Origin: an uncultured Bacilli bacterium
GTDB taxonomy: Bacteria > Bacillota_I > Bacilli_A > RF39 > UBA660
Direction: 5' to 3'
Length of the DNA stretch: 47,257 bases
Assembly (NCBI GenBank): GCA_944358135.1
Contig: CALVQN010000002.1
Span: forward strand, 1 to 47,257
Shown here: positions 17,517-41,050 of the stretch, piece after piece
How the letters are laid out: the number at the start of each line of letters is the position of its first letter
How positions within the stretch are numbered: the first letter of the stretch is position 1
Made by a program: the position numbers and the translations under genes
The notes under the pieces: generated by a model
The model's input: the letters and a program-made list of their open reading frames with translations, nothing else
Databases searched by the model: none
Told to the model about the DNA's origin: nothing

Positions 17517-18920
17517 ATGTCTAATGGATATATTGTTGGGTGTGCATTAGTAATTTCAATATTAATTACTATTATGTTTAGTATCAAATCAAAGGTTACA
17601 AATATAGAAACAAAAATATTTAAGAAAATGCTTTTTGTTAATATTTTAGAATCCCTTATGACAAATCTGATTTTCATAGTCGCCATTACAATTGATTCTA
17701 CTTTTATTTTAAAAATTCTAAACCGAATCGATGTTATTTTAATTGTTGTTTGGTGTAGCTTAATGTTTTATTATATATATTCAATTACAAGCAAAAAAGT
17801 GGAACAACGTATTAAAAAGTTTGTTATCTTATTGGATATTATTATAGTTTTTTTTGCTTTATTTTTAGATGTTACCATTATTAATGAAAATGGGATTATG
17901 AACTCAACAGGAATGCTTACATATTTAGGTTTTATTGGTGCGAGTTTATATATAATATTTATGATTTTAACATTGATTATGATTAGAGATAAAAAAGATA
18001 ATTTAGATAAAAATAAATATATTCCACTATATTTTTTGATAGGTATGCTTATCTTAGTAGCAGTTTTAAGATTAATTATACCAGAGATTAATTTTATATC
18101 TATTGTTATTAGTTTAGTTGATATGATTATGATTTTTACAGTAGAGAATCCAGATGTAAAAATGCTTAATCAAGTACTACTAGCAAAAGAACAGGCTGAA
18201 AAGTCCAATAAAGTAAAATCGGATTTTTTGTCAAGTATGTCACATGAGATTAGAACTCCATTAAATGCCATTGTGGGGTTTAGTGAGTTAATAGATAGTG
18301 CCGAAACTTTAGAAGAAGCAAAAGAAAATAGTAAAGAAATTTTAGAAGCTTCTAATACATTATTAAATATGCTATCTAATGTAATTGATATTGCTCAAGT
18401 AGAAGTGGATAGTGTAGAAATAAAAGAAGTTTCATATGATTTAGAAAAAGAACTTAAAAATATATGTAGGTTGTACCAATATAAATTAGAAGAAAAACAT
18501 TTAGACTTAGATATAGATATAAATGTTCCCAAAATGCTAAAAGGGGATATTGATAAAATTAAAAGAATTGTTGCTAATTTATTAGATAATGCAATTAAAT
18601 ATACTGACATGGGCTATATCTCGCTAGTAGTTAATTCATCAATTAAGAATAACCTTTGTAATTTAGAAATACGTATACAAGACACAGGAATTGGTATTGA
18701 TCAGAAAGTAATAAATCACTTGTTTGAAAATTTTGTTAGATCTAGTGAACATAAGGATTCCAATAAATCAGGCATGGGGTTAGGATTATCAATTACCAAA
18801 AAACTTGTCGATTTAATGAATGGAAGTATTGAGTGTGAATCAAAAGAAGGTACAGGAACAACATTTATTGTTAGAATATCTCAAAAAGTAGGTGATGAAT
18901 CTGAAAGCATTAGTAGTTGA
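17517..18920 (+). CDS. Sensor histidine kinase with a polytopic membrane N-terminal domain
   Basis: Six to seven TM helices, then the H-box SHEIRTPLNAI, the N-box LLDNAIKYT, and G-boxes DTGIGI and GMGLGLSI. Confidence 0.85.
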   Translation: MSNGYIVGCALVISILITIMFSIKSKVTNIETKIFKKMLFVNILESLMTNLIFIVAITIDSTFILKILNRIDVILIVVWCSLMFYYIYSITSKKVEQRIKKFVILLDIIIVFFALFLDVTIINENGIMNSTGMLTYLGFIGASLYIIFMILTLIMIRDKKDNLDKNKYIPLYFLIGMLILVAVLRLIIPEINFISIVISLVDMIMIFTVENPDVKMLNQVLLAKEQAEKSNKVKSDFLSSMSHEIRTPLNAIVGFSELIDSAETLEEAKENSKEILEASNTLLNMLSNVIDIAQVEVDSVEIKEVSYDLEKELKNICRLYQYKLEEKHLDLDIDINVPKMLKGDIDKIKRIVANLLDNAIKYTDMGYISLVVNSSIKNNLCNLEIRIQDTGIGIDQKVINHLFENFVRSSEHKDSNKSGMGLGLSITKKLVDLMNGSIECESKEGTGTTFIVRISQKVGDESESISS

Positions 18921-19257
18921 TGATAGTTTAATCAATCTTAGAGTAGCTCAAAAATTGTTGGAACACTTAAATTTAGAAGTAGATACTGCCCTTAGTGGTA
19001 AAGAGTGCTTAGAAAAAGTTAAGAGTAATTCATATGATATTATTTTTATGGATATAATGATGCCTGAAATGGATGGCGTGCAAACATTTCAAAATTTAAA
19101 GTCAATAGAAGGTTTTTCTACTCCGGTTGTTTCTTTAACAGCGGACGCAAAAACTGGAGCAAAAGAAAGATACCTAGGCTTAGGGTTTAGTGACTACATT
19201 TCTAAACCGATTGATTTAAAATTATTAGAGAATATTATTAAAAAGTTCTCAAATTAA
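18895..19257 (+). CDS. Stand-alone receiver-domain response regulator (CheY-like, no output domain)
   Basis: LVVDDS, phospho-acceptor FMDIMMPEMDG, SLTAD and SKP motifs. It overlaps the kinase stop by about 26 nt. Confidence 0.8.
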   Translation: MNLKALVVDDSLINLRVAQKLLEHLNLEVDTALSGKECLEKVKSNSYDIIFMDIMMPEMDGVQTFQNLKSIEGFSTPVVSLTADAKTGAKERYLGLGFSDYISKPIDLKLLENIIKKFSN

Positions 19258-19268
19258 ATTTGAAGATT

Positions 19269-19296
19269 TTGCATTTTATATGAATTGTGGTATAAT
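19269..19296 (+). promoter_or_regulatory. SigA-type promoter for the greA-like/lysR pair
   Basis: TTGCAT (19269-19274), a 16-nt spacer ending in TGG, then TATAAT (19291-19296). This is an extended -10. Confidence 0.5.
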
Positions 19297-19325
19297 ATTT
19301 GTCAACAGGAGGGGGATTTTTATAT

Positions 19326-19871
19326 ATGAAGGAAACAGAAAAAATTTATTTGGATCAAAAAGGATACCAACAATACTTGCAAGAAATTGAAGATTTAAAA
19401 GAAAGACTAAACGAGAATAGTAGGCAAAAATCATCTGCCTACACAAATGCTGTTGGGGATGGATGGCATGATAACTTTGAATTCGAAGAAGCAAAAAGAG
19501 AAGAATTTAAAATTATGGGATTACTTCGAGACAAAGTTGAAGGATTAAGTAGGATTGTGATTATAGATAAAAATGAAAAATCACAAAATGAAAACGATCT
19601 TGTGGATATTGACGATTATGTAAGTGTTTTATTATTAATGCCAGATGATGAAACAGAACATATGGTCTTTAGATTGGTTGCTTCGTTAAGTACCAATAGA
19701 GGCATAAAAGAAGTTTCTCTGAATAGTCCAATGGGAAAAGCAGTATATGGTAAAAAAGTAGGAGAAACTGGAAAATATCAAGTAAATGGAAATGCTTTTT
19801 TAGTTCAAATACTGGCTAAATCAAAAGATTTAACTGAAGATTTGGAAAATAATAATTCATTAAAAAGGTAA
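19326..19871 (+). CDS. GreA/GreB-family transcript cleavage factor paralog
   Basis: ATG at 19326 after GGAGGGGG. N-terminal coiled coil with tip GDGWHDNFEFEEAK (compare GreA GDLxENAEYxAAK). C-terminal SPMGKAVYGKKVGE (compare SPIARALIGKxVGD). Confidence 0.65.
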   Translation: MKETEKIYLDQKGYQQYLQEIEDLKERLNENSRQKSSAYTNAVGDGWHDNFEFEEAKREEFKIMGLLRDKVEGLSRIVIIDKNEKSQNENDLVDIDDYVSVLLLMPDDETEHMVFRLVASLSTNRGIKEVSLNSPMGKAVYGKKVGETGKYQVNGNAFLVQILAKSKDLTEDLENNNSLKR

Positions 19872-19873
19872 GT

Positions 19874-20764
19874 ATGAATTTTAATTATTTAGTAAATTTA
19901 AATTTATACAGAACATTTTACTTTGTCGCCACTTCTTCGTCTTTTAAGGAGGCATCAGTAAAATTATATATGTCTCAACCTGCAATAAGTAAGCAGATAA
20001 AAGAATTGGAAGATATTTTAGGTGTGAAACTATTTACTAGGTTTAATAAAGGAATCGAGCTAACAAAAATAGGTAGAATTCTTTTTAACCAATTAGAGAA
20101 TGCTAATTTTTATCTAAAAGAATCTATTAATCAGATAGAACAAATTAAAGACTTAAAAGCGGGAGAATTAATTATAGGATGTCCATCTCATATTACTTCG
20201 TTTTATTTATTAGATAAAATAGAAAAATTTAAAACGAATTATGGTAATGTTGAGATAAAAGTGGTCAATGGTTCTACGAGCGAAATGCTAAATGATTTAT
20301 ATCATCATAAAATAGATTTTATGATTGATTTTGATCCAATAGATAATAAATACCATGATTTTAAGATTGAAGTTCTAGATTATTATGATACAGTATTAAT
20401 TGCTAATTATAAATTTGATAAAAAAATAAAGAATTTAAATGATCTAATTGATCAGAATTTTGTTTTACCTTTGCCAAGGAGTTCTGTACGAAAGAACTTT
20501 GAAAAAATATTATTAAATAATGGCATTTCAATTAACGTAGGATTGGATTTAGATACAACTGATCTAATAATTTCGGCTGTAAAAAGAAATTTTGGTATCG
20601 GATATGTAATAAAAGAATCTGTAAAGGAAGAATTAAAGCAAAAGTCTATAAAAGAATTAAAATTAAATTATGACCTTCCAAAATTAAAATTAAATTTAGT
20701 ATATAATGAAAATTTTTTAACACCCTCAGCAAAAGTGTTTATTGATAACTATATTAGAGTTTAA
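19874..20764 (+). CDS. LysR-family transcriptional regulator
   Basis: N-terminal wHTH F..VA...SF..AS..L.MSQPAISKQIKELE..LGVKLF.R, followed by a substrate-binding domain of about 200 aa. Confidence 0.85.
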   Translation: MNFNYLVNLNLYRTFYFVATSSSFKEASVKLYMSQPAISKQIKELEDILGVKLFTRFNKGIELTKIGRILFNQLENANFYLKESINQIEQIKDLKAGELIIGCPSHITSFYLLDKIEKFKTNYGNVEIKVVNGSTSEMLNDLYHHKIDFMIDFDPIDNKYHDFKIEVLDYYDTVLIANYKFDKKIKNLNDLIDQNFVLPLPRSSVRKNFEKILLNNGISINVGLDLDTTDLIISAVKRNFGIGYVIKESVKEELKQKSIKELKLNYDLPKLKLNLVYNENFLTPSAKVFIDNYIRV

Positions 20765-20776
20765 CAATTTTTAAAA

Positions 20777-20813
20777 AAGATGTCAAACCTTAAGTGTTAG
20801 ACATCTTTTTTTT
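20777..20813 (+). terminator. Rho-independent terminator after lysR
   Basis: AAGATGTC (20777-20784) pairs with GACATCTT (20800-20807), followed by a T run. Confidence 0.6.
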
Positions 20814-20824
20814 ACTATAACCTC

Positions 20825-20860
20825 CAGTTATTTCAAATTAAAAAACAGTTATTTGAATTT
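20825..20860 (+). promoter_or_regulatory. Repeated candidate LysR-binding site upstream of the viperin operon
   Basis: CAGTTATTTCAAATT (20825-20839) and CAGTTATTTGAATTT (20846-20860) are direct repeats 21 nt apart. They also contain the inverted pair TTCAAAT/ATTTGAA. The second copy overlaps the -35. Confidence 0.35.
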
Positions 20861-20881
20861 ATATCAATATAAAGGTATAAT
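20853..20881 (+). promoter_or_regulatory. SigA-type promoter of the viperin-centred operon
   Basis: TTGAAT (20853-20858), a 17-nt spacer, then TATAAT (20876-20881), about 20 nt upstream of the HAD gene start. Confidence 0.45.
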
Positions 20882-20901
20882 GTTTCTAGTAGGTGATTGT
20901 G

Positions 20902-21765
20902 ATGTCCAAAATTAAATTGATAGCAATTGATATTGGTGGGACTTTAATTGATGATAACAATAATATTCCGCCGGAAAATATTGAAATATTAAAAAAAATG
21001 AAGAAGCAAGGCATAAAAATAGCACTAGTTACTGCAAGAATGCTATCCTCAACAAAATACATTAGTAACGTAATTGAATGTGATTATGGAGTATATGGAA
21101 ATGGAAGCAATATCATAGACTTAAACAATAACAAAGTGCTTTATTTAGAAAAGTTATCAAATAGAAATTTAGAAAGTTTGGTAAATTTTGGAAAAAAACA
21201 AAATTTATATATTCACTTAAATCAAGTTTTTCAAGAAGTATCAGATCAAAAAAAATATTTTGCTTTAAAGCATATTCTTTTAAACAAAAAATATCCTAGT
21301 AATCTTCAAAGCAATGTAGAAGTTGTTTCGAGTTTAAAAGATTACATTAATAATACCGATAATATTGTAAAATTAGTTTTTGTATCAAAGAAGAATTTAG
21401 ATGTAATAAAAGAAAAAATATCAAAAGAGTTTCCAGACATTTTCATAACTGAATATAATACGAATCTAAAAGAAACTGCAATTAATGAGATTATTAATTA
21501 CATTGAGATAGGAGCGAAAGCTACAACTAAAGCAGAAGGTGTTAAAAAATTGGCAAATATACTCAATTTAAATCAAGAGGAGATTCTAGTTATCGGAGAT
21601 GGAAACAACGATATAGAAATGTTTAAAGCATTTAAGAATTCAGGTTGTTTAAAAAATGGAACATCAGAAGCTAAAGTTAATGCTAATTATGTTTCAGAAA
21701 AAAACAATAATGAAGGCGGATTAAGTGAAATAATAGAATATTATATTAATAAAGAGGAGGAGTAA
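20902..21765 (+). CDS. HAD-IIB (Cof-type) phosphatase-like protein with an atypical motif I (DIGGT)
   Basis: KLIAIDIGGTLID (motif I), VTAR (motif II region) and GDGNNDIEMF (motif IV). Cap-domain size is typical of Cof. ATG at 20902 after AGGTGA. Confidence 0.75.
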   Translation: MSKIKLIAIDIGGTLIDDNNNIPPENIEILKKMKKQGIKIALVTARMLSSTKYISNVIECDYGVYGNGSNIIDLNNNKVLYLEKLSNRNLESLVNFGKKQNLYIHLNQVFQEVSDQKKYFALKHILLNKKYPSNLQSNVEVVSSLKDYINNTDNIVKLVFVSKKNLDVIKEKISKEFPDIFITEYNTNLKETAINEIINYIEIGAKATTKAEGVKKLANILNLNQEEILVIGDGNNDIEMFKAFKNSGCLKNGTSEAKVNANYVSEKNNNEGGLSEIIEYYINKEEE

Positions 21766-21771
21766 TGAATA

Positions 21772-22380
21772 ATGAAAATAGCGATTGAGGGTATGGATGG
21801 AGTTGGAAAAACCACTTTAGCAAAAAAATTGGCTCAAGAATATAATTTTAAATATATTGAAAAGCCACTAATGGACTTTTTTGAAATTGATAATTTAGAT
21901 ACTAAAGCAATTTATGGCCAAATTTGTGATAAATTATATCAATTTAATAGCGAAATTCCTAAAGCTTGGTTTTTCGGACTAGGTAATGTCTATACATTTT
22001 TAAAATATAAGGATGAAAATATAATTATTGACAGGCATTTTGCCTCAAATTATTTTTGGAATGGAACAGAAGAAACAAATTGCATTTTTAAAACTATGAT
22101 TGATCTTGTAGGTGTGCCGGATCTTACTATTGTACTGTATGCTTCCATTGAAACTAGAAATAATAGATTAAAAAGAAGGGATGCTTTAGATAGAGATATA
22201 TACGATCCTGAAAAACAAGTATTGGGAAGTGATAAAATGATAAATTTTTTAGAGAATTTTCACATCCCTTATGTTCTCATTAATACTGAAGGAAAAACAA
22301 AAGAAGAGGTTTTTAATGAATCCAAATTAATTATAGATGGATTACAATTAGATAGTTTTTCAAGAAAACGTAGGAGGTAA
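21772..22380 (+). CDS. Thymidylate-kinase-fold nucleoside/nucleotide monophosphate kinase
   Basis: P-loop IEGMDGVGKTT, DRHFASNY (compare TMPK DRY..S) and lid-like RLKRRD. The RBS is embedded in the end of the HAD gene. Confidence 0.65.
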   Translation: MKIAIEGMDGVGKTTLAKKLAQEYNFKYIEKPLMDFFEIDNLDTKAIYGQICDKLYQFNSEIPKAWFFGLGNVYTFLKYKDENIIIDRHFASNYFWNGTEETNCIFKTMIDLVGVPDLTIVLYASIETRNNRLKRRDALDRDIYDPEKQVLGSDKMINFLENFHIPYVLINTEGKTKEEVFNESKLIIDGLQLDSFSRKRRR

Positions 22381-22381
22381 A

Positions 22382-23095
22382 ATGTTACAGTTTTTGGGAA
22401 TAGGTGGTGCTTTTTCAGTTGATCTAGGAAATACATCCGCATTTTATAAAAAAGAGAATGAATTATTTTTATTGGATTGTGGTGAAGATGTCTTTGGCAA
22501 TATATTGAAAAACCATTTATTAGAAGGAGTCACTAAAATTAATATTCTTATTACTCATTTTCATAGTGATCATGTTGGTAGTTTAGGTACTTTGGTATTT
22601 TACTGTGATGCAAGCAATTTAGAGGAAATTAATATTGTTTTTCCAAATAGAGAAAAATTGGTTGAATTAATTAGGCAGTTTGGTATACAAAATTGTAATA
22701 TTAATATCTATACACCGAAAGAGTTCGCTAGATTAAAAATTAAAGAATATCGTCAAGAACATGATGTGATTGAGGCTTATGGGTATATAATAAAATTGGA
22801 TGGAAAAACAATTTATTATTCTGGAGATACTAAATCTCTTCCTGATGAAGTTTTCGCTCTTTTGATTAAAGGAAAAATAGATTATTTTTTTCAAGATGTT
22901 AGATTAAAACAAAACCCATATCATTTATCATTAGAAGAATTAGAAAGTAAAATACCATTTAATTTAAGAAAACAAATTAATTGTATGCACTTTGTATCAG
23001 AAGCAGAAATCAACGAAGTTACAGAACATGGTTTTTCGAGAGTTAGAAGGTTTGAAAGCGAGGAAAAAAATGGAAATATTAAGTCCAGCAAGTAA
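22382..23095 (+). CDS. MBL-fold metallo-hydrolase (RNase Z / PhnP-like phosphodiesterase subgroup)
   Basis: LGIGGAF...LLDCGE...ILITHFHSDHVGSLG (HxHxDH), with later YSGDT and MHF motifs. Its start lies 1 nt after the kinase stop. Confidence 0.7.
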   Translation: MLQFLGIGGAFSVDLGNTSAFYKKENELFLLDCGEDVFGNILKNHLLEGVTKINILITHFHSDHVGSLGTLVFYCDASNLEEINIVFPNREKLVELIRQFGIQNCNINIYTPKEFARLKIKEYRQEHDVIEAYGYIIKLDGKTIYYSGDTKSLPDEVFALLIKGKIDYFFQDVRLKQNPYHLSLEELESKIPFNLRKQINCMHFVSEAEINEVTEHGFSRVRRFESEEKNGNIKSSK

Positions 23096-25151
23096 TATGA
23101 GACATATACAGGTTGCAATTGATAATAAGGCAAATGCTGTATATGGAGGTTTGAAAAATTGGAATGCTAGAAATAAGGCAATTAATTTTACAGAAGCCGA
23201 ATATAATCAATTAATAACAATGTTACATCAAAATAATATAAAATTCTTTTTGACTTTAAATATTCTAATGCTTGATAATGAAATTGAAGAAGTAATAACA
23301 TTTTTGAAGAAAAATTCTTTGCCCGATGCTTTCATAGTCACAGATATTGGATTAATACAGGTATTAAAGCAAGAATTTCCTAATGTTCCATTACATTTTT
23401 CAACACAATTTGGTTGTCATTGTATTGACGATGTTAATTTTGTAAAGGCTATTGGCGGAACAAGGGCTATTTTATCTAGGGAACTTACATTAAAAGAAGT
23501 GGAAAAAATCAGAAATAATACAGATATTGAGTTAGAGTGCTTTATTTGGGGATCTCAATGTCTAAGTTTTTCTGGGTTATGTTTTTTTGGCAGTTTGATC
23601 AATGGCGGAAGTGGTAATAGGGGGAAATGTATCACTTTATGCAGAGATGTTTACTCGGTTAATGAAAATGGTCATTTGTTATATGTTCCAGATATGGATT
23701 GTATAAATTTAATAAGTAAATTAGATAAAATAGATTGCCTAAAATTGGAGGGACGTCGTAGAGATCCTAAAGAAATTGAAAAAATTTTACAACAAATTTC
23801 TAATAAAGAAACATCGGACCAAAATGTAGGATATTTATATGGAACAAATAGTAAGGATAATAATCAATATGAACTAATTAATTCTAGAATTAAGCCAGTA
23901 TTTCAAGCAAATGAACTAAAGAATCGAGACGACTATGATGTGTTTATAGAATACCAAAATGGTAAGCCAATTAGATTTTCGAATAATTATAATAATCCAA
24001 ATGTATTTTATGTATACTCAGAAATTAAAAGGAAATATAGCTTGACTAAAAAGAATATTAGTATCGATTTAACTTTTGATGAGAATGTTGTATCTGAAGT
24101 ATTATATGTCAATTATAAAGGGGATGGACATACATTTTTTAGAGATAATAATAGTAATGATGATCAAATTGTGTTAGATTTTGATGAATTGATTCGGCGA
24201 TTATCTTTAAATGATAAAATAAATATTTATAAAATAAAATTCAAAAAGGGGCAATATGATAAATATCTAGTCAGTAAATCTATGTATGATAAAATGATAA
24301 ATTATATTCTAGATGATTGTAAAAATACACGTGAAACTTATCCAACAATTCCTTTAAAACTTAATAAAATATTATTAGAAACTCAACAGGAAGAGATTTT
24401 AACCGAATTTGTTAAAGATAAATTCGTAAAAGTGATATATGATATAAGTACAATAGATAAACTAAAAAATATTCAAAATATTATAGATCAATATGGTGAT
24501 AAGATAATTTATAAATTACCTTTATTCAATTGGGATAGTGAAGATGTTATACCTTATATTTCTAAGCTTGAAAACAAAGAAATTATGTTTACTAGAATGT
24601 CCCAAATATATCTATCAAAAAATATTCATTTTAAAAAGAAATATGCGGATTATACAATATACGTTTGGAATAAAGAAAGTTTAAATTTTTTAAAAAATAT
24701 GGGAATTCAAGAGTTTACTTTATCACCAGAATTAGATTATGAAACTAATATGAAAATTTATAATGCTGAAAAAGTACAAGCCCTGTTGTGTGGCAAATTT
24801 CCTCTTGTTTATACAAGAAATTGCTTTAAAGAGGTTTTTAATTGTAACAATTGTATTAGAGAACAATCATGCTTAAAAACAATAGTAAATGTAGACAAAG
24901 GAATAGATTTTGAAATATTGTGTAATACTGATTATCGTTATGTATTAAGTAAAATCCCTGTGTTAAATGATTATTCAAGATTTAAAATAGGAGAAAATGT
25001 AAACTTTAGGTATATTGCACTTGGCGATAATGCAGAAAACATTAGAAAAACATTAAATATTTTAAAAGAAGTTAATTTTTATGAAAAATTAAAAGCAAAT
25101 GATTATTGGAAAGATTCTTATGAATGTAACATTATAGAAAGTAAAAGTTAG
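23070..25151 (+). CDS. U32-family protein (RlhA/TrhP/UbiU-UbiV-type putative Fe-S hydroxylase), apparently with two U32-like modules
   Basis: The ATG at 23070 (RBS GAGGAAAAAAA) gives MEILSPASN....AI...ANAVYGG, the canonical U32 N-terminus. The Cys cluster is E.FIWGSQCLSFSGLCFFGS....GSGNRGKCITLCR. The C-terminal half repeats a similar pattern (LSPELDYE....LLCGKFPLVYTRNCF...CNNC). It overlaps the MBL gene by 26 nt. Confidence 0.75.
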   Translation: MEILSPASNMRHIQVAIDNKANAVYGGLKNWNARNKAINFTEAEYNQLITMLHQNNIKFFLTLNILMLDNEIEEVITFLKKNSLPDAFIVTDIGLIQVLKQEFPNVPLHFSTQFGCHCIDDVNFVKAIGGTRAILSRELTLKEVEKIRNNTDIELECFIWGSQCLSFSGLCFFGSLINGGSGNRGKCITLCRDVYSVNENGHLLYVPDMDCINLISKLDKIDCLKLEGRRRDPKEIEKILQQISNKETSDQNVGYLYGTNSKDNNQYELINSRIKPVFQANELKNRDDYDVFIEYQNGKPIRFSNNYNNPNVFYVYSEIKRKYSLTKKNISIDLTFDENVVSEVLYVNYKGDGHTFFRDNNSNDDQIVLDFDELIRRLSLNDKINIYKIKFKKGQYDKYLVSKSMYDKMINYILDDCKNTRETYPTIPLKLNKILLETQQEEILTEFVKDKFVKVIYDISTIDKLKNIQNIIDQYGDKIIYKLPLFNWDSEDVIPYISKLENKEIMFTRMSQIYLSKNIHFKKKYADYTIYVWNKESLNFLKNMGIQEFTLSPELDYETNMKIYNAEKVQALLCGKFPLVYTRNCFKEVFNCNNCIREQSCLKTIVNVDKGIDFEILCNTDYRYVLSKIPVLNDYSRFKIGENVNFRYIALGDNAENIRKTLNILKEVNFYEKLKANDYWKDSYECNIIESKS

Positions 25152-25160
25152 GAGGCTTCT

Positions 25161-25871
25161 ATGAAGACAAAAAGTATATGGGGAAATCCCCCAAAAAGAT
25201 TATATAAGTTAATGAAGATAGCCGAAAGGGATTTTGGCAAAAAGTATACAGCTTGTATTGTAGGTTGTTCTGATGGTAAATTTTTATTACCATTTGCTAG
25301 AAAGAAAATAAGAGTTGCCGGTTATGATATTGATGATATTGCCTTATATGGTGGTCAAAAATTATTTCCAATTGTTAATGAAAAAAATAAGTATCAATAT
25401 AATAAAAATTTTAAATCTCCAGAATATGAATTGGTTGAAAAAAGAGTATTAGGAATTACAGAAAGGTTAGAGATAGAAAATTTATCTGATTATGCTTTAA
25501 TTGAAAAAAGAGATTTTTATCGTAATGTACCCAAAAAGACTTTCGATGTAGTTTTTACTAGCTGTTCTTTACATTATACAGCTAATAAAGATTTTAGTTT
25601 GGAAGATAAAACAAAAAAATTACAAAGCATTGTTTCTGTTGGAGGATATTTATATATAGATTATATGATGGCAATAGAAGAAGGAGATTATACATTATAT
25701 CCGAAAGAAAAGTTCTATCGTAAGGGTGAAATTTTAAAATATTTTGATAATAATTGGAAAATTATTTCATGCAAAGAAAACAACCTTCCATCTTTTGAGG
25801 GAGCGCATGTTGATTGTGTTAAAGATCATTTTCATAGATTTGGATATCTATTGGCAAAGAGGATTAAATAA
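25161..25871 (+). CDS. Class I SAM-dependent methyltransferase (TehB-like)
   Basis: Motif I IVGCSDGK, acidic loop GYDID and motif IV region FDVVFTSCSLHY. RBS TTAGGAGG. Confidence 0.6.
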   Translation: MKTKSIWGNPPKRLYKLMKIAERDFGKKYTACIVGCSDGKFLLPFARKKIRVAGYDIDDIALYGGQKLFPIVNEKNKYQYNKNFKSPEYELVEKRVLGITERLEIENLSDYALIEKRDFYRNVPKKTFDVVFTSCSLHYTANKDFSLEDKTKKLQSIVSVGGYLYIDYMMAIEEGDYTLYPKEKFYRKGEILKYFDNNWKIISCKENNLPSFEGAHVDCVKDHFHRFGYLLAKRIK

Positions 25872-26641
25872 TGACGAAAGAAATTTGTTGGAATATTACC
25901 GCTTTATGTAATCAAAGTTGTAAGTACTGTCATCGATTTTTAAATCTTAAAAATTTATCTTATGAAGAAAATTTAAAAATTTTGTATAATTTAATTGATT
26001 CAGGTGTGGATCATATTACCTGGACAGGTGGTGAAGCTTTGATGTTAGATTATCTTGACGATTTATTGAAGATTTCTTATGATAAAGGAATTAAAAATAA
26101 ATTGATAACTAATGGCAGGCTTTTAACAAGAAACAGAATAGACAAAATCTATAAATACTTGGATAATATTACATTATCAATTGATTCAATAGATAATGTA
26201 ATAAACGAAGCATTAGGGCGAGGAAAGTATCATTTTAAAGAAATACAAAGCATTTTAGAATATATTACAGAAAAAAAGTATGACATAAAAATTAGTATTA
26301 ATACTGTAATATGCAAGCTTAATTTACACGATGTTTGCTCTTTATCCAATTTCTTAAATATTTATAATATTTGGAGTTGGAGAATTTTCAAATTTATGCC
26401 ATTACGAGAAAAAGCAATTACTAATAAGGAAATATTTGATATTTCAATGGATGAATTTTCTAAAATTGTCAATGAAATAAGGAAGAAAAGTTTAATTCAA
26501 AATATTGATACTAGGGTTGAAGAAGATATGGAGAAAAAATATGTTTTAATACTTGCCAATGGAGATATAGTAATTACAAATCAGGGAAAAGATGAAAAAG
26601 TTGGTAATGCTTTAATAGATCGCATGGAGAAATATATATGA
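25871..26641 (+). CDS. Viperin-like radical SAM enzyme (prokaryotic viperin candidate)
   Basis: CNQSCKYC (CxxxCxxC). It is collinear by eye with vertebrate viperin: N....CN..C.YC; ITWTGGEAL vs INFSGGEPF; LITNG.LL vs IVSNGSLI; LSIDSID..IN..LGRGK vs ISCDSFDEEVN.LIGRGQ; ISINTVI...N vs FKINSVIN..N; WRIFKFMP vs WKVFQCLL; KYVLIL vs SYLILD. TAATG overlap with the methyltransferase gene. Confidence 0.65.
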   Translation: MTKEICWNITALCNQSCKYCHRFLNLKNLSYEENLKILYNLIDSGVDHITWTGGEALMLDYLDDLLKISYDKGIKNKLITNGRLLTRNRIDKIYKYLDNITLSIDSIDNVINEALGRGKYHFKEIQSILEYITEKKYDIKISINTVICKLNLHDVCSLSNFLNIYNIWSWRIFKFMPLREKAITNKEIFDISMDEFSKIVNEIRKKSLIQNIDTRVEEDMEKKYVLILANGDIVITNQGKDEKVGNALIDRMEKYI

Positions 26642-27525
26642 TTGAATATACTGGAAAACAAGTTACAATAATGGCTTGTTCAGATTGCAATGCTAATTGT
26701 GAGCACTGTTATATATCATATACTGGAAATATGACAGGCAAATATTTATTGCAAATGTGTAGATTGTTTAAAAATAAATACAAAATAATTATAAATGGAA
26801 CAGAACCATTATTGCATGAAGATTATTTTGAAGCATTCAAATTATCTGATCAAAATCGAATTTTAACAAATGGTCTCATAATTAATAGTGATGAAACAAT
26901 ATTAGATAAAATAAAAGAAACTGGTATAAAAAATATAGCAATGTCTTATCATTTTGGAACCGAAATATCTACTGTGCCACAAGATATTGTTGAACAAGCT
27001 ATAATTAAAATAAAAAAACACAATTTAAATCCAGAATTAATGTGTACAATAACTGTAGAAAACTATGATAAATTAGATGATATATGTAAAAAGACAATTG
27101 ATTTAGAAGTTAATACGATAAGATTTTTTAATTGTATTAATACTGGAAAATGCGAATCAAATTGCTCAAATTTCTGCCTTGATGACGAACAAATTAATCA
27201 TTTTTTTGATCAATTAGTTGAGGTAAGAAAAAAATATGGCAAAGATATTTTAAAAATTAAAAGAAATGGTCTATTTGGTAAAGATAGTAATAATACTAAT
27301 TATAATTTTAAGTGTGTTGCCAGTATTGATGAAGTTGTTATCACACCAGATGGAAATGTTTATCCTTGTATATTTATGGCAAAACCGGGATTTGAAATTG
27401 GTCATTATGAGAATGGCAAAATTCTGCTTTATTATCAATTAGACAATAATGAGGATAGATGTATTGCACATGATATTTTTAATAAAAAAGAATATTCCTT
27501 TTCAAAAAAACTTGTAAAAAGGTAA
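26638..27525 (+). CDS. Second radical SAM enzyme with a Cys-rich SPASM/twitch-like C-terminal region
   Basis: CNANCEHC at residues 17-24, NGTEPLL and LTNG. C-terminal Cys clusters CINTGKCESNCSNFC and C........VITPDGNVYPC. ATGA overlap with the viperin-like gene. Confidence 0.7.
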   Translation: MIEYTGKQVTIMACSDCNANCEHCYISYTGNMTGKYLLQMCRLFKNKYKIIINGTEPLLHEDYFEAFKLSDQNRILTNGLIINSDETILDKIKETGIKNIAMSYHFGTEISTVPQDIVEQAIIKIKKHNLNPELMCTITVENYDKLDDICKKTIDLEVNTIRFFNCINTGKCESNCSNFCLDDEQINHFFDQLVEVRKKYGKDILKIKRNGLFGKDSNNTNYNFKCVASIDEVVITPDGNVYPCIFMAKPGFEIGHYENGKILLYYQLDNNEDRCIAHDIFNKKEYSFSKKLVKR

Positions 27526-27626
27526 ATTTTGTTGAATAATATAAGCATATTTAATGTATGAATTAGGAGGCTTTTAATAAATTTATAAAAATAATTCTAA
27601 AATTAAATTAAAAAAAATAAAATTCG

Positions 27627-27635
27627 TGATATAAT
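27627..27635 (+). promoter_or_regulatory. Possible internal extended -10 promoter for the CYTH gene pair
   Basis: TGATATAAT in the 135-bp gap after the second rSAM gene. There is no convincing -35. Confidence 0.3.
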
Positions 27636-27659
27636 TATTATAGTTAAAGGAGTGATTTT

Positions 27660-28451
27660 ATGCCAAAGATTGAAAAAGAAATAAAAGTACTTAATATAAA
27701 CGTTGATCAAGTACAAGATAAACTTAAAGAAATTGGAGCAAAAGCCAAAGGAAAAAAAGAACAAAAAATTTATGTTTATGACGTTCCAGCTTTATACTAT
27801 CGCTTTTTAGAAATAAGAGAATTAATTAACTCTTCTAATGGGTTACTGGTAGAAACAAATTTAAAGAAATTAGAAGTGTTATTATTAGAATACATTGATT
27901 TAGAAAACGAAGAAGAATTAGCCATAGAAAAAACTTTGCTTGGACTAAACGATTTGATGGATATATTAAAATTAGATATTGATAATATTAGAGAAATATT
28001 AAACAATCAAACGTTAGAGGCTAATATGAAGAAGTTTTTAATTAATCCTAATAAGTGGGTTAGACTTAGAAAAAGTAATGATAAAATTGAACTAACCACA
28101 AAACATATTCTCAATAAAAAGCATGGTGATTACCAGAACGTTTTGGAAACTGAAATTGAAGTATCTTCATTTGAAGAAGCAAATAACTTATTAGAAAGCA
28201 TTGGCATATGTAAAAGAAATTATCAAGAAAAAATAAGATATAGTTTCGTTTATAAGGATGCACAGATTGAAATAGATATTTGGCCTATGTTAGATCCATA
28301 TTTAGAAATTGAATGCGATAACAATAAAACTATCGAAGAAATTTTAGAAAAATTGAATTTAAAAGAAAATGAAATAGTTTCTACTAATACAGAGTCATTA
28401 TATAAAAGAAAAAATATTGATATTTTACAAATTTCTACATTAAAATTTTAG
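27660..28451 (+). CDS. CYTH-domain (triphosphate tunnel metalloenzyme; CyaB/ThTPase-like) protein with an internal insertion
   Basis: N-terminal ExExK (EKEIK). Later blocks: WVRLRK....ELT.KH, ETEIEV..FEEA...LE.IG, and K.R.SF......IEIDIWP.L.PYLEIE. About 75 extra residues lie between the first and second conserved blocks. Confidence 0.65.
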   Translation: MPKIEKEIKVLNINVDQVQDKLKEIGAKAKGKKEQKIYVYDVPALYYRFLEIRELINSSNGLLVETNLKKLEVLLLEYIDLENEEELAIEKTLLGLNDLMDILKLDIDNIREILNNQTLEANMKKFLINPNKWVRLRKSNDKIELTTKHILNKKHGDYQNVLETEIEVSSFEEANNLLESIGICKRNYQEKIRYSFVYKDAQIEIDIWPMLDPYLEIECDNNKTIEEILEKLNLKENEIVSTNTESLYKRKNIDILQISTLKF

Positions 28452-28459
28452 GGGGATTA

Positions 28460-29134
28460 ATGAAAAAGAAACAAACCATTTTATGCTCTAATGACGAGAA
28501 TATAAATAAATTGATAAGTACTTTGGCTAATAAAAAAGTTTTTAATCAACTTTTAGAAGTGTTAAGAAGTATAGGCACTTTTGATACAAAAATTGAGATT
28601 TTTAAAGACGAAAGTAATTTAGATGATGAAAAGATCAAAGTGTGGTGTTTTGATCAAAATAATAATATATTTGTTTTTTGCTTATTTTCAGATGCTAAGC
28701 AAGACTTCTTTAAAATTTCTGAAGAAAGAGATGATGGAGTCTCTGTTTACTATGACTTTTCTTTATCAAAAAATTATCCATTAAGTTCCAATAATATTAG
28801 TTTTATAAAATGTGAACACATTTACAATTTTAAGCATGGAAGATTAATAACTACTAGTGAAAATGATTATAACTTATTTATACAGAATGATAATATAATA
28901 AGCATCCATGTAGATCCCTTAGATCAGAAGTTGGATGTAGATATGCTTTTAAAAGGTTTAAATTCATGCGAAACAATCAATTTAAAAAATTATATCGAAA
29001 TAGTTAATTCAATAATTACATTTCATCATTTAAACATTAATTATATTAAAGTTAGTATAGTAAGTAAATTTCAAGTTGTTAATGAATTTAAGATAAACTT
29101 TGAACCAGTACATAAAGAGACGATCAATTTGTAA
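28460..29134 (+). CDS. Hypothetical protein, last gene of the viperin-associated operon
   Basis: 224 aa. RBS GGGGGA. No TM segment and no motif I can recognise. Confidence 0.5.
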   Translation: MKKKQTILCSNDENINKLISTLANKKVFNQLLEVLRSIGTFDTKIEIFKDESNLDDEKIKVWCFDQNNNIFVFCLFSDAKQDFFKISEERDDGVSVYYDFSLSKNYPLSSNNISFIKCEHIYNFKHGRLITTSENDYNLFIQNDNIISIHVDPLDQKLDVDMLLKGLNSCETINLKNYIEIVNSIITFHHLNINYIKVSIVSKFQVVNEFKINFEPVHKETINL

Positions 29135-29183
29135 ATTGTAAGTTTTTTGAAAACATAAAGTTAGATTTTTTAGATCATTTTGG

Positions 29184-29205
29184 TACACATTAATTGTGTA
29201 TTTTT
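29184..29205 (+). terminator. Rho-independent terminator candidate ending the operon
   Basis: TACACA-TTAAT-TGTGTA followed by TTTTT. Confidence 0.4.
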
Positions 29206-29394
29206 AATTTTAAAAATATAAAATCCTTTGTTAAAAAGTGCTTTTTTGTATTTTACAGAAATGCACATGGGAAAATCTGTGATACAGACAATTAGAAAAG
29301 ATAATATGTAATATATTAAATACTATAATGACACAAGAAAAAATTAAATACATTGGATAAAAAACGACTTATAAAAAACAAAACAAGACCTAAA

Positions 29395-29416
29395 TAAGGC
29401 GTAAATAAGGCGTAAA
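29395..29416 (+). repeat. Tandem TAAGGCGTAAA x2 near the right island end
   Basis: Exact 11-nt tandem duplication. The same 11-mer occurs at 16247-16257. Confidence 0.45.
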
Positions 29417-29433
29417 AACATTTTTAAAAAGCA

Positions 29434-29455
29434 AAAGCCTTTAAATAAAGGCTTT
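29434..29455 (-). terminator. Terminator hairpin downstream of tRNA-Thr (minus strand)
   Basis: AAAGCCTTT pairs with AAAGGCTTT around a 4-nt loop. On the minus strand it is followed by TGCTTTTT. Confidence 0.5.
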
Positions 29456-29465
29456 CAAAGACATA

Positions 29466-29539
29466 TGGTGCTGAATGACTGAATTGAACAGTCCTCTGAT
29501 GCTTACCATGCATCCGTTTTACCACTAAACTAAATCAGC
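29466..29539 (-). tRNA. tRNA-Thr (anticodon GGU)
   Basis: Hand-folded 74-nt cloverleaf: acceptor GCTGATT/ATTCAGC (one U-U mismatch at 6:67), D arm GTTT-AGTGGTA-AAAC, anticodon arm GATGC-AT GGT AA-GCATC, variable loop AGAG, T arm GACTG-TTCAATT-CAGTC, discriminator A, encoded CCA. Confidence 0.8.
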
Positions 29540-29547
29540 ATATCTAA

Positions 29548-29556
29548 ATTATAACA
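29548..29556 (-). promoter_or_regulatory. Extended -10 promoter for tRNA-Thr
   Basis: The minus strand reads TGTTATAAT, ending 8 nt upstream of the mature tRNA 5' end. Confidence 0.4.
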
Positions 29557-29582
29557 AATATATAGTTTTCATGCAATATCTA

Positions 29583-29591
29583 TGTTATAAT
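29583..29591 (+). promoter_or_regulatory. Extended -10 promoter candidate for uppS
   Basis: TGTTATAAT lies about 22 nt upstream of the GTG start. The -35 is weak. Confidence 0.3.
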
Positions 29592-29613
29592 TTATGCGAA
29601 AGGATGTGTTTTC

Positions 29614-30324
29614 GTGAATGTACCAAAGCATGTAGCAATTATTATGGATGGTAATGGTAGATGGGCAGAAAAACGCGGTTTAAAAAGAAGTATGGGTCAT
29701 TTAGAGGGAAGTAAGACTCTAGAAAAATTAGCTATTCATGCAATAGATATGGGAGTAAGTATTTTAAGTGTTTATGCTTTTTCAACAGATAATTTTAAAA
29801 GAGATGAAGAAGAAGTTAAATATTTAATGGATCTTGTGGTAAAATATTTTAATACCAAATTTGAAAAAATAAATAAAAAAGGAGTAAGAGTTATAGTTTC
29901 TGGTCGTAAAGAAAACTTAAGAAGTGATGTAGTTGAAGCAATAAATAATATTGAAGAAAAAACGAAAAATAATACTGCAGGAATTCTAAATATATGCCTA
30001 AATTATGGTGGCCAAGAAGAGATTATTGATGGAGCAATAAAACTTGCGGAAGATATCAAAAATGGTTTAGACGTAAGAAATTTTAAAAGAGAAGATTTTT
30101 ATTCTTATTTATATCATAGCCTTCCACCAATTGATTTACTAATTCGTACAGGAGGGGAATTAAGAGTAAGTAATTTTATGTTATACCAAATGAGTTATAG
30201 TGAATTTTACTTTACCAATACTCTTTTTCCTGACTTCGATAAATCAGAATTTAACAAAGCAATATTTATGTATGAAAATAGAGACAGAAGGTTTGGCGGA
30301 ATAAATGAGAAAAAGAGTAGTTAA
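29614..30324 (+). CDS. uppS: Undecaprenyl-diphosphate synthase (cis-isoprenyl transferase)
   Basis: HVAIIMDGNGRWA, AFSTDNFKR, LIRTGGE.R.SNF..YQ..YSE.YF and DF motifs. Confidence 0.9.
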   Translation: MNVPKHVAIIMDGNGRWAEKRGLKRSMGHLEGSKTLEKLAIHAIDMGVSILSVYAFSTDNFKRDEEEVKYLMDLVVKYFNTKFEKINKKGVRVIVSGRKENLRSDVVEAINNIEEKTKNNTAGILNICLNYGGQEEIIDGAIKLAEDIKNGLDVRNFKREDFYSYLYHSLPPIDLLIRTGGELRVSNFMLYQMSYSEFYFTNTLFPDFDKSEFNKAIFMYENRDRRFGGINEKKSS

Positions 30325-30760: not shown

Positions 30761-30822
30761 TCTCTTTTCCTTTTCTATGATTTGTAGTATAATACTTTTA
30801 GTTTATGTACGGGAGGGAAACT

Positions 30823-39974: not shown

Positions 39975-39997
39975 GGAACATCTTACAGACCTGTTTT
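39965..39997. terminator. Bidirectional terminator between nfo and the Rpn-family gene
   Basis: AGGTCTGTA pairs with TACAGACCT around a 10-nt loop, followed by GTTTTATTTT. Confidence 0.6.
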
Positions 39998-40826: not shown

Positions 40827-41050
40827 AAACTTTCTCCTTTCTAGAAGCACTATACTAAAAAGGGAAAAGTAAGTCAAATTGCCAATTTTATCAATTTCAA
40901 AGATCAAATTAACAATTTGCTGTATGAAATTAATAAATTGATGTATGAAATAGCCAAAAGGTAGAGTGAAATTAATAGAATTAGTAAATTTTAAAAAAAT
41001 AGTAATTTGTTGCAAAATTTGTTGAAAAGAAAAAACTTCTTAAAAAGAAG

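Follow-up and report, generated by a model that had tools for sequence, protein, structure and literature searches.

A cluster of genes built around a viperin-like radical S-adenosylmethionine (SAM) enzyme (rSAM) was identified in DNA of an uncultured Bacilli bacterium (GTDB lineage Bacillota_I; Bacilli_A; RF39; UBA660), the stretch analyzed being positions 1 to 47,257 of contig CALVQN010000002.1, which is hereafter called the window. It was suggested, at roughly even chances, that this cluster is a LysR-activated chromosomal operon encoding a pathway which builds a tailored nucleotide or nucleoside, whereby a product of the 3'-deoxy-3',4'-didehydro (ddh) type is plausible. The best reading is that the cluster is not a canonical defense module of the prokaryotic viperin (pVip) kind. 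As judged from the genes shared between related loci, the near-universal unit consists of the viperin-like rSAM together with LysR and a CyaB-like CYTH protein, to which kinases and receiver domains are often added. The window is AT-rich (~26% G+C) and the genes of interest are all located on its plus strand, where the block following the regulator gene is composed as listed.

20902-21765, plus strand: Cof-type HAD protein, first gene of the tight block; its longest open reading frame (ORF) opens at GTG 20893.
21772-22380, plus strand: kinase of the thymidylate kinase/deoxynucleoside kinase (TMPK/dNK) fold, 6 nt after the HAD gene.
22382-23095, plus strand: metallo-beta-lactamase (MBL) protein, 1 nt after the kinase gene.
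23070-25151, plus strand: U32 protein, overlapping the MBL gene by 26 nt, its ATG preceded by GAGGAAAAAA.
25161-25871, plus strand: methyltransferase-like protein, 9 nt after the U32 gene.
25871-26641, plus strand: viperin-like rSAM, with a TAATG junction and a 1-nt overlap with the methyltransferase-like gene.
26638-27525, plus strand: second radical SAM protein (rSAM2), with an ATGA junction and a 4-nt overlap with the viperin-like rSAM gene.
27608-27635, plus strand: promoter-like site TTAAAA-16-TG-TATAAT (TG-extended -10) within the following 134-nt gap, a consensus match only.
27660-28451, plus strand: CYTH protein, 134 nt after rSAM2.
28460-29134, plus strand: ORF encoding 224 residues, 8 nt after the CYTH gene.

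The viperin-like rSAM comprises 256 residues and possesses a CNQSCKYC cluster motif, the motifs GGE and GRG and the tyrosine Y224. Within its radical SAM core, C13-x3-C17-x2-C20 and G53-G54-E55 are invariant, both among 14 relatives and in an alignment of 105 sequences, and the clade carries the signature W-[RK]-x-F-K-F-M-P-[LIV]-R-E. Pfam Radical_SAM matches the protein with 73.8 bits, the best NCBIfam model is viperin_w_prok (NF038283) with 134 bits, followed by the next family with 70 bits, and the PADLOC pVip models score 139-152 bits. A phmmer search of PDB sequences returned viperins as the nine best matches (E 5e-14 to 3e-11), with SkfB and MoaA at ~1e-8 to 1e-7 (MoaA 2e-7), and a profile of 105 rSAM relatives matched viperins at 4e-41 and MoaA at 6e-26. 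The AlphaFold2 model of the enzyme (pLDDT 96.9) identified with Foldseek only viperins as its top 18 PDB matches (query-normalized TM-score 0.78-0.86, rmsd 2.1-2.9 A), the TM-scores being 0.81 for SkfB and 0.69-0.72 for MoaA. The affinity of the enzyme was judged from hidden Markov model (HMM) scores, PDB sequence ranks and fold ranks in place of a formal phylogeny, and these agree in placing it with viperins and not with MoaA/QueE/PflA-type enzymes, which a preliminary description of the locus had named as the competing placement. Considering sequence and model together, the enzyme is viperin-like with viperins as its closest family, membership in the viperin family proper not being established.

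Related loci were found by scanning one genome per species, which yielded 80 loci, all of them from uncultured gut metagenome-assembled genomes (MAGs), and their neighborhoods were reconstructed from our own ORF calls and phmmer searches with the window proteins at E<=1e-5. The relatives are without exception MAGs or metagenome contigs; binning errors may underlie taxon labels such as Muribaculaceae. The exact rSAM protein recurs in identical synteny on many contigs from gut metagenomes. All contigs of the window species that are long enough contain the cluster, and no empty site was found among ~23 contigs. Next to the window species, 16 loci of a Bacilli type were identified (counting L011-L013; rSAM identity 55-79%), which share the order Gre-like factor, LysR, HAD, kinase, (MBL), (second Gre-like factor), U32, methyltransferase-like protein, rSAM, a further methyltransferase termed MT2, (rSAM2) and CYTH. 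Their core is composed of the Gre-like factor, LysR, HAD, kinase, U32, two methyltransferases, rSAM and CYTH. The flanking genes vary, with tRNA synthetases and RelA in L011 and NUDIX, FtsK, M20 or FtsW elsewhere, and since the flanks differ between species, the Bacilli-type block is conserved as a unit. Other genomes thus share this core at chromosomal locations that differ, in line with the neighborhood check proposed in the preliminary description, with the MBL protein, rSAM2 and the 224-residue ORF being accessory. NUDIX hydrolase genes lie directly upstream of the cluster in two loci (L021 2975-4024, L024 210-710) and hint at sanitation of non-canonical nucleotides.

The gene set of the window is not identical with this core. 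MT2, a clear class I methyltransferase of ~215 residues, follows the rSAM in nearly every relative, among them the 79%-identical L014 (MT2 at 10267-10908), which possesses both MT2 and rSAM2. In the window MT2 is missing and the stop codon of the rSAM overlaps the start codon of rSAM2 (ATGA), and as a consequence the product made there may carry one methyl group fewer. The description of the nine genes as one set needs correction, as three of them are accessory and a core class I methyltransferase of the relatives is missing in the window.

A second and larger group, the Clostridia type, comprises 67 loci (L027-L093) with rSAM identities of 42-55%, and its members encode only a ~190-residue protein, whose gene lies upstream of lysR, LysR itself and an rSAM fused to a C-terminal receiver-like domain. 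The ~190-residue protein was considered as a Gre-like factor, which was rejected, as BLASTP and hhalign revealed no similarity; it was identified as a divergent CYTH protein instead. Its profile gave CYTH proteins as the only top PDB matches (2een at 6e-7, 1yem, 7ns8 and the class IV cyclases 3n0y and 2fjt), and a Pfam-positive CYTH protein of another lineage matches both the Bacilli-type and the Clostridia-type CYTH sets. A LysR homolog adjoins the rSAM gene in 62 of the 67 Clostridia-type loci and in all Bacilli-type loci. The fused receiver-like domain (e.g., L070 10001-11182) reads, by eye, A-K-Y-N-M where L-L-D-I-M would be expected, and judged in this way it would be a pseudo-receiver devoid of the phospho-acceptor aspartate. 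On the 3' side, a divergent Spo0A-like regulator in convergent orientation is followed by small sigma/HTH proteins, MazF-like genes and recombinases. At a distance of 1-5 kb from the module there are genes for sigma-r4/HTH proteins and MazF-like toxins, together with a tyrosine integrase or one to two large serine recombinases. A ToxN domain is encoded upstream in some of these loci, and the module may have been carried as cargo at one end of an integrative element or reside beside an integration hotspot.

Further architectures, obtained from an exhaustive search of representative sequences, join the same partners. Fusions of the rSAM to LysR (~563 residues) occur in four 50%-identity clusters and each of them is preceded by a CYTH gene, a fusion of the rSAM to a PfkB-type kinase is located beside a divergent LysR gene and a REC-like gene, and in other loci the rSAM gene is directly followed by LysR or by a CYTH gene of the window's subfamily. 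Downstream of one CYTH gene and rSAM::LysR fusion (L094 10049-17227), a separate operon encodes an SsuA-like ABC importer, a protein of 763 residues resembling phosphoenolpyruvate (PEP) synthase/rifampicin phosphotransferase, two unknown proteins and a histidine-phosphatase, for which the fused LysR is a candidate regulator. While LysR and CYTH had at first been treated as peripheral, the comparison of loci makes both of them universal partners of the rSAM.

The following features were identified between the Gre-like gene and the HAD gene.

19874-20764, plus strand: LysR-type transcriptional regulator (LTTR), Pfam HTH_1 63.7 bits and LysR_substrate 89.3 bits.
20779-20813, plus strand: terminator-like hairpin and T-run after lysR, read from the sequence, with a GATGTCAAAC / GTTAGACATC stem with one mismatch, a 7-nt loop and T8.
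20817-20831, plus strand: putative LTTR recognition box ATAACctccaGTTAT, a palindrome of the T-N11-A type centered ~64 nt upstream of the predicted start site.
20825-20881, plus strand: predicted operon promoter with -35 TTGAAT (20853-20858) and -10 TATAAT (20876-20881).

That a LysR gene and a repeat-bearing promoter lie directly upstream of the operon was confirmed by Pfam and by a repeat search. The direct repeat CAGTTATTT[C/G]AA[A/T]TT has exactly two copies in the window, one at 20825-20839 and the other at 20846-20860, and what had been noticed as a direct repeat turned out to be the right half of a palindrome together with a putative activation-site copy. The palindrome, ATAAC-N5-GTTAT, occurs once in the 47-kb window (20817-20831), and it or a one-step variant is found downstream of lysR in all 16 Bacilli-type loci, while a second GTTAT half-site at 20848 abuts the -35 element. 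In the classic LTTR layout a recognition site resides near -65 and an activation site near -35. Palindrome and second half-site match this textbook arrangement. Among Clostridia-type and fusion loci the motif was found in none of 57, and a box shared with these loci was therefore rejected; the regulators there must use another operator. The hairpin after lysR was not reported by the consensus scan, its stem having too few G-C pairs, and promoter consensus matches in the AT-rich DNA of the window are not above shuffled expectation.

With respect to the organization of the block itself, ORF coordinates, packing and junctions (-26 to +9 nt) were reproduced from the ORF table and a junction listing, and Pfam, NCBIfam and PADLOC scans recovered almost all of the domain families assigned beforehand (Cof-type HAD, kinase, MBL, U32, methyltransferase, rSAMs and CYTH). 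Purine-rich motifs of the Shine-Dalgarno type precede nearly all starts in the cluster. The locus had been described as a nine-gene operon; nine genes do follow in the given order, yet a promoter-like site precedes the CYTH gene and the unit extends upstream to the Gre-like gene. The gap before the CYTH gene exists as described, its length being 134 nt rather than 135 bp. As it harbors the promoter-like site with the TG-extended -10, a single transcript is not assured, and the CYTH gene and the 224-residue ORF may have their own promoter. A 7-codon ORF (MYELGGF) at 27554-27577, also within this gap, is not conserved in position among relatives and was taken as chance. Rfam scans of the whole window at gathering thresholds, and of positions 19000-29700 at E<=1, returned a tRNA-Thr as their only hit and no riboswitch, and on these grounds a riboswitch or other RNA element within the cluster was rejected.

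The partner enzymes were characterized individually. The HAD protein matches Pfam Hydrolase_3 with 155.7 bits and the NCBIfam Cof-subfamily with 135 bits, just under the cut-off of 137, and was classified as a Cof-type HAD-IIB phosphatase, which is found in 14 of the 16 Bacilli-type loci. The kinase, encoded in all 16, carries a P-loop (GMDGVGKT), a DRH motif and an arginine-rich lid; it matches Pfam Thymidylate_kin (46 bits) and dNK (36 bits) and, in PADLOC, VakA (57 bits) and PDC-M51B (60 bits), with PDB sequences giving P-loop matches only. Its resemblance to viperin-associated kinases, as expected beforehand, is borne out by the VakA score. The accessory MBL protein (HxHxDH) is phosphodiesterase-like (Pfam Lactamase_B_2, 53 bits), with sub-threshold matches to RNase Z (56 bits), PhnP (42 bits) and Apyc1 (35 bits), and is present in only 5 of the 16 related loci.

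The U32 protein (693 residues) matches Pfam Peptidase_U32 (PF01136) with 153 bits (gathering threshold 22.4) over residues 97-265 of the long ORF and is encoded in all 16 Bacilli-type loci at 689-703 residues, the NCBIfam matches to TrhP (148 bits, cut-off 534) and UbiU (119 bits) both being far below cut-off. Characterized U32 proteins are O2-independent hydroxylases, namely TrhP, RlhA and UbiU-UbiV, with methylation as the next reaction in the TrhP/TrmR case (ho5U to mo5U in tRNA). Four cysteines of the N-terminal domain are invariant in 17 sequences and the C-terminal half possesses a second conserved cysteine cluster. The protein had been termed a double U32 protein; what can be demonstrated is the domain of the N-terminal half, as hhalign of the two halves, aligning the motifs RELT...C...C and SPEL...C, gave E 0.3 and Pfam yielded no match in the C-terminal half at 1e-4. 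The conserved cysteine clusters in both halves nevertheless make a second U32 domain plausible. In two metagenome contigs a protein of 922 residues (P0382) clustered with the window U32 protein, alongside members of 237 residues, which is the length of the MBL protein. Its length is near that of MBL plus U32, the genes of which overlap by 26 nt in the window, and it may have arisen by read-through or a frameshift that joins both.

The methyltransferase-like protein is of the TehB-like class I SAM type (motif I VGCSDGKF, acidic GYDID; Pfam at most 24.7 bits) and aligned by hhalign over motif I with the relatives' unambiguous class I methyltransferase family (probability 86%, E 4.6e-6). It is very highly conserved, and in each of the 16 Bacilli-type loci its gene immediately precedes that of the rSAM. 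PDB sequence searches gave no match for it or for the U32 protein. The CYTH protein is CyaB-like, with a conserved N-terminal E5-K-E7-I-K9 (ExExK) and an insertion of ~85 residues in the window copy, which scores 24.5 bits on NCBIfam cyaB (cut-off 57.95) without a Pfam match and has Saci_0718 TTM as its best PDB match (E 6.7e-6). Among its orthologs, that of L011 matches Pfam CYTH and that of L094 scores 53 bits on cyaB (cut-off 58). rSAM2 is accessory and confined to the window, L014, L015 and L026. Its Pfam matches to Radical_SAM (27.9 bits) and SPASM (19.2 bits) are below gathering thresholds, its best NCBIfam score is <=43 bits, and its cysteine-rich tail is SPASM/twitch-like, with SPASM scores of 19-21 bits below cut-off. 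No conserved precursor-peptide ORF was found beside rSAM2, the sole small ORF nearby encoding 7 residues, and in L015 and L026 rSAM2 abuts a methyltransferase gene, leaving no space for a peptide gene. As neither a precursor peptide nor a SPASM score above threshold was found, a function as maturase of a ribosomally synthesized and post-translationally modified peptide (RiPP) was rejected. The 224-residue protein, likewise accessory, has weak homologs only in L015 and L016 and no match in Pfam, NCBIfam or PADLOC.

Upstream of the regulator gene, the unit is extended by a Gre-like factor which is preceded by two-component genes.

17517-18920, plus strand: membrane histidine kinase (HisKA + HATPase_c), from the translation and Pfam matches of the identical gene in L001.
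18892-19257, plus strand: stand-alone canonical receiver (REC; Pfam Response_reg) with its DD, MD, T and K residues, overlapping the histidine kinase gene by 29 nt.
19268-19296, plus strand: promoter-like site upstream of the Gre-like gene and lysR, from the consensus scan.
19326-19871, plus strand: divergent Gre-factor (GreA/GreB-fold) paralog of 181 residues with the tip GDGWHDN, 2 nt upstream of lysR.

The unit had previously been drawn as starting at the HAD gene; the Gre-like paralog upstream is also co-conserved, with two-component proteins in its neighborhood. Pfam matches the C-terminal GreA_GreB domain of the paralog with 33.5 bits (gathering threshold 26.9) and its N-terminal domain with 16.9 bits, below threshold. 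The AlphaFold2 model (pLDDT 84) comprises a coiled coil and a beta domain, and GreA, GreB and Gfh1 are the top Foldseek matches (E 1.7e-10 to 3.4e-7). The tip loop GD[GN]WHDN is nearly invariant and holds two acidic residues. A copy precedes lysR in most Bacilli-type loci, a second one precedes the U32 gene in 8 of them, and only 93 homologs were found among 5.8 billion clusters. Gre factors stimulate cleavage of the RNA 3'-end in backtracked RNA polymerase. Dedicated copies would make sense if the product were an incorporated chain terminator. As distant members of the family reside in housekeeping neighborhoods, the cluster copies look like paralogs recruited from a lineage-specific GreA. 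One such housekeeping-context member adjoins a Ham1/ITPase-like gene (L104 8379-8936), which hints at sanitation of non-canonical nucleotides. Concerning the two-component genes, a REC gene immediately precedes the Gre-like gene in L014, L022 and L023, histidine kinase or REC genes are also found in L014 and L017, and they are not present at this position in L011 and others. The histidine kinase is a possible signal input, its link to the system being loose and its membership uncertain.

Based on this gene content, a reaction sequence was suggested. Here, kinase and HAD phosphatase would determine how far a nucleoside or nucleotide is phosphorylated, and the CYTH protein would act on the triphosphate, either removing or cyclizing it and hence providing the real substrate of the rSAM, or processing the product; as a speculation, it may first convert a nucleoside triphosphate (NTP) into a cyclic or less-phosphorylated form. 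Next, the viperin-fold rSAM would abstract a hydrogen from the ribose, leading to a viperin-type radical dehydration or elimination, while the U32 protein may add a hydroxyl group independently of O2, which the methyltransferases would cap. LysR is assumed to sense a metabolite of the pathway and thereupon to turn the operon on. Finally, the Gre paralogs would indicate that the product meets RNA polymerase, and they may, e.g., rescue host transcription complexes stalled by a chain-terminating nucleotide. A nucleoside or nucleotide as substrate is argued for by the combination of kinase, phosphatase, CYTH and viperin-fold rSAM, by the PfkB fusion, by the NUDIX neighbors and by published fusions of eukaryotic viperins to kinase and COG1437-type domains, whereas hydroxylation followed by methylation is suggested by the presence of U32 and two methyltransferases, in analogy with TrhP/TrmR.

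Several findings weigh against this pathway, and the first of them concern the rSAM itself. Its 134 bits on NF038283 compare with a cut-off of 180, the alignment covering model positions 3-250 of 281, and ten sampled representatives of neighboring 50%-identity clusters score 103-166 bits, i.e., all under 180. About 30 C-terminal positions of the NCBIfam and PADLOC viperin models are unmatched, as the protein ends at residue 256; longer relatives of 283-301 residues do match them. In mouse viperin this C-terminal extension covers and binds the nucleotide triphosphate. The substrate contacts of the mouse enzyme, which we take to be N77, H79, K120, S124, R194, K220, N222, R245, K247 and Y302 (6Q2P), were mapped by chain numbering plus 44 and checked against the alignment. 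Five of these positions are kept (R194 as R117, N222 as N144, K247 as R171, S124 as T52 and Y302 as Y224) and five are replaced (N77 by C6, H79 by N8, K120 by H48, K220 by S142 and R245 by S169), the latter five varying among relatives, with R or G at the K220 equivalent. The missing tail and the lost basic residues suggest that the substrate of the rSAM is not a free NTP bound as in viperin. Taking the sub-cut-off score, the missing tail and the replaced residues together, ddhNTP chemistry on an NTP is an extrapolation, and the viperin-type ddhNTP product put forward in the preliminary description has to be read as such. Next to this, the Clostridia-type loci possess CYTH, LysR and the rSAM fused to the receiver-like domain only, and the core function can therefore do without the tailoring enzymes. 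The assignments of the U32, methyltransferase-like and CYTH proteins are based on generic or sub-threshold matches which reveal no substrate, the housekeeping contexts of distant Gre-like proteins mean that the Gre link could partly reflect lineage history, and the constant LysR link and the fusions fit signaling as well as biosynthesis.

The explanation that survives best beside the tailoring pathway is a signaling circuit, which was considered unlikely. It assumes that rSAM and CYTH make a nucleotide-derived ligand that is read by LysR, two-component or receiver-like domains controlling the enzyme, and, with the same reserve, that the extra enzymes of the Bacilli would be the regulated output or would serve to modify or degrade the signal; Gre-like factors and nucleotide-tailoring enzymes would be among the output. 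The architectures argue for such a circuit: rSAM::LysR fusions are found in four 50%-identity clusters, with CYTH before them and a separate transporter/kinase/phosphatase operon after, the rSAM is fused to the receiver-like domain in ~60 Clostridia loci, a REC-like gene adjoins the rSAM::PfkB fusion, and histidine kinase and REC genes lie upstream in the window, L014, L017, L022 and L023. For the CYTH partner, class IV adenylate cyclases are the nearest family (53 bits at a cut-off of 58, and PDB matches), and enzyme-regulator fusions in which the enzyme makes the ligand of the regulator are known from BirA and NadR. However, a LysR gene beside a biosynthetic or catabolic operon is commonplace and requires no dedicated signal, the fused receiver-like domain lacks, by eye, the phospho-acceptor aspartate, and the rSAM reaction costs one SAM per turnover, which is expensive for a signal. 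Moreover, an effector protein besides LysR is not evident, and kinase, phosphatase, hydroxylase and methyltransferases resemble a pathway more than a regulon. The tailored ddh-nucleoside pathway of the preliminary description is partly supported; the partnership with LysR and CYTH, including the rSAM::LysR fusions, points to regulated metabolism or signaling at least as much as to defense.

Canonical pVip defense, in which kinase and pVip would make anti-phage ddhNTP chain terminators and the neighbors would be passengers or minor helpers, was judged improbable. The viperin fold, the PADLOC scores of 139-152 bits for pVip and the kinase match to VakA speak for it, as do the Clostridia-type loci beside recombinases, ToxN and MazF-like genes, one of them (L108, 11.8 kb, ending in recombinases) being the one IMG/VR contig found for this type. 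Against it stand an rSAM below the NCBIfam equivalog cut-off which lacks the C-terminal tail and several NTP-binding residues, and the obligate LysR and CYTH partners together with a conserved U32/methyltransferase set, which are foreign to described pVip systems. The genomic context does not favor it either, as the window is ordinary chromosome (PriA, a P-type ATPase, a sigma factor, UppS and PBP2), PADLOC found nothing on the window genes beyond the pVip and kinase models, and no defense-island, phage or plasmid context was recognized. An antiviral role, as considered in the preliminary description, is not backed by this context, the cluster having no defense island around it and being apparently fixed in the species. 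Scanning the viral contigs of IMG/VR with two peptide patterns derived from the alignment of 14 close relatives revealed no Bacilli-type relatives, on which basis a phage origin of the Bacilli-type cluster was rejected.

Other features of the surroundings were recorded. In the 480-nt spacer between the cluster and uppS, a tRNA-Thr(GGT) gene (29466-29539, minus strand) is followed by a terminator-like hairpin (29432-29457, minus strand), and the assembly of one sample (L008/L116) is interrupted within the spacer, with different genes after the cluster. A gene for a TraG/VirD4-type type IV coupling protein of 772 residues (30805-33123) is isolated between housekeeping genes, with UppS upstream and a rhodanese and an ABC transporter downstream, and with no other conjugation genes among the scanned neighbors. 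A PD-(D/E)XK-family transposase-like gene (39996-41015, minus strand) is the only sizeable minus-strand gene thereabouts, and the GC skew is locally reversed at the same place (40-41 kb). A Fic/DOC-domain protein (9344-10003) directly follows priA and is itself followed by a sigma-70 family factor (10211-10987).

Likewise of low probability is the inducible salvage or catabolism of a diet- or host-derived, perhaps modified, nucleoside or sugar-phosphate, for which LysR would serve as sensor of the substrate, the kinase as trap and the rSAM as radical dehydratase in a route leading to central metabolism. LTTRs typically control catabolic operons, the rSAM::LysR lineage resides beside an ABC importer with an SsuA-like binding protein, a PEP-utilizing phosphotransferase and a phosphatase, and HAD, kinase and MBL proteins suit the turnover of phosphate esters. 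Two SAM-dependent methyltransferases and a hydroxylase are, however, tailoring rather than catabolic enzymes, the window cluster holds no transporter, one SAM per turnover is expensive for bulk catabolism, and the Gre-factor paralogs would be left unexplained. Finally, an RNA-modification module, in which U32 and methyltransferases would hydroxylate and methylate a tRNA or rRNA pyrimidine as TrhP/TrmR and RlhA do and the rSAM would modify RNA, is very improbable: TrhP is the best NCBIfam match of the U32 protein (148 bits), the succession of U32 and methyltransferase mirrors that of ho5U and mo5U and the MBL protein has RNase Z-like similarity, but the TrhP score is far below the 534-bit cut-off, kinase, HAD and CYTH proteins act on small phosphate esters and not on RNA, housekeeping RNA-modification genes are rarely under a dedicated LysR, and the core triad of CYTH, LysR and rSAM exists without U32 or methyltransferases.

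Viperins are the textbook example of an immune enzyme common to bacteria and animals, and the conversion of NTP to ddhNTP is, to our knowledge, their sole known chemistry. As indicated by sequence comparison, the enzymes described here would form a sister group of viperins, abundant in uncultured gut Firmicutes, which has lost part of the NTP-binding apparatus and gained obligate CYTH and LysR partners; its Bacilli members also gained a hydroxylase, methyltransferases, a kinase, a phosphatase and Gre-factor paralogs. If the product is a decorated ddh-type nucleotide, it would represent a new class of natural nucleotide antimetabolites, possibly with built-in rescue of transcription. If it is a ligand of LysR instead, the cluster would represent a new form of nucleotide signaling and the first second messenger or regulatory nucleotide circuit in bacteria made by a radical SAM enzyme, which would be categorically new. 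In either case, a clonable gene set with a defined promoter/operator provides a means of testing roles of viperin-like enzymes outside immunity.

Comparison with known systems was extended to each component. The U32 protein resembles TrhP/TrmR, RlhA and UbiU-UbiV in possessing a domain with a four-cysteine Fe-S motif and a SAM methyltransferase-like gene next to it, and with its 693 residues may mimic a UbiU-UbiV-type pair in one chain. It differs in scoring far below every equivalog cut-off, in a second domain which is not demonstrable and in its context, which points to free nucleotides and not to RNA or quinones. With CyaB and Saci_0718 TTM, the CYTH protein shares the ExExK start and matches to CYTH proteins only in PDB and NCBIfam; it differs in scores below cut-off, in the ~85-residue insertion of the window copy and, for the Clostridia-type copies, in E-I-T replacing ExE, and from its sequence cyclase and hydrolase activity are indistinguishable. 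The four clusters of relatives in which the rSAM is fused to a complete LysR recall BirA and NadR, whereas rSAM and LysR are separate genes in the window. The Gre-like protein shares with Gre factors and Gfh1 the coiled coil, the C-terminal globular domain and the two acidic tip residues; unlike in Gre factors, its tip GD[GN]WHDN contains a one-residue insertion relative to the canonical GDLxEN, its N-terminal Pfam domain is below threshold and it is encoded, in one copy or two, within a metabolic cluster.

With respect to viperins themselves, pVips with associated nucleotide kinases were reportedly described by Bernheim et al. in 2021, and the PADLOC models pVip (PDLC02903/02904) and VakA were used for comparison. 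Shared features are the viperin-fold rSAM with CxxxCxxC, GGE, GRG and the tyrosine equivalent to mouse Y302, as well as a TMPK-like kinase in the operon. Unlike pVips, the window rSAM scores below cut-off, ends at 256 residues without the C-terminal tail and has the equivalents of K120, K220, R245, N77 and H79 replaced, and it belongs to a multi-enzyme cluster with CYTH and LysR on an ordinary chromosome rather than in a defense island. In public sources no name was found for the 10 window proteins, 120 rSAM or 93 Gre-like homologs, except for one generic "GreA/GreB family" label. The searched literature contained no paper joining a prokaryotic viperin with U32, or a viperin with CYTH and radical SAM, none on a viperin-like protein with gene cluster, methyltransferase and nucleoside, and nothing relevant on CYTH, radical SAM and LysR. 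The view that a system of such composition had not been described is thus consistent with the searched literature, in which the kinase linkage and rare cyclase/triphosphatase fusions of eukaryotic viperins come nearest. The vertebrate gene pair RSAD2 (viperin)-CMPK2 and the eukaryotic fusions involve genuine viperins, which possess the complete C-terminal extension and for which ddhNTP output is proven, and LysR, U32, methyltransferase or Gre partners are not reported for them (bioRxiv 10.1101/2023.09.13.557418). What they have in common with the cluster is a viperin-type enzyme linked to a TMPK-family kinase and, in a few of the eukaryotic viperins, fused to a domain of the COG1437/CYTH type (cyclase/triphosphatase; bioRxiv 10.1101/2023.09.13.557418).

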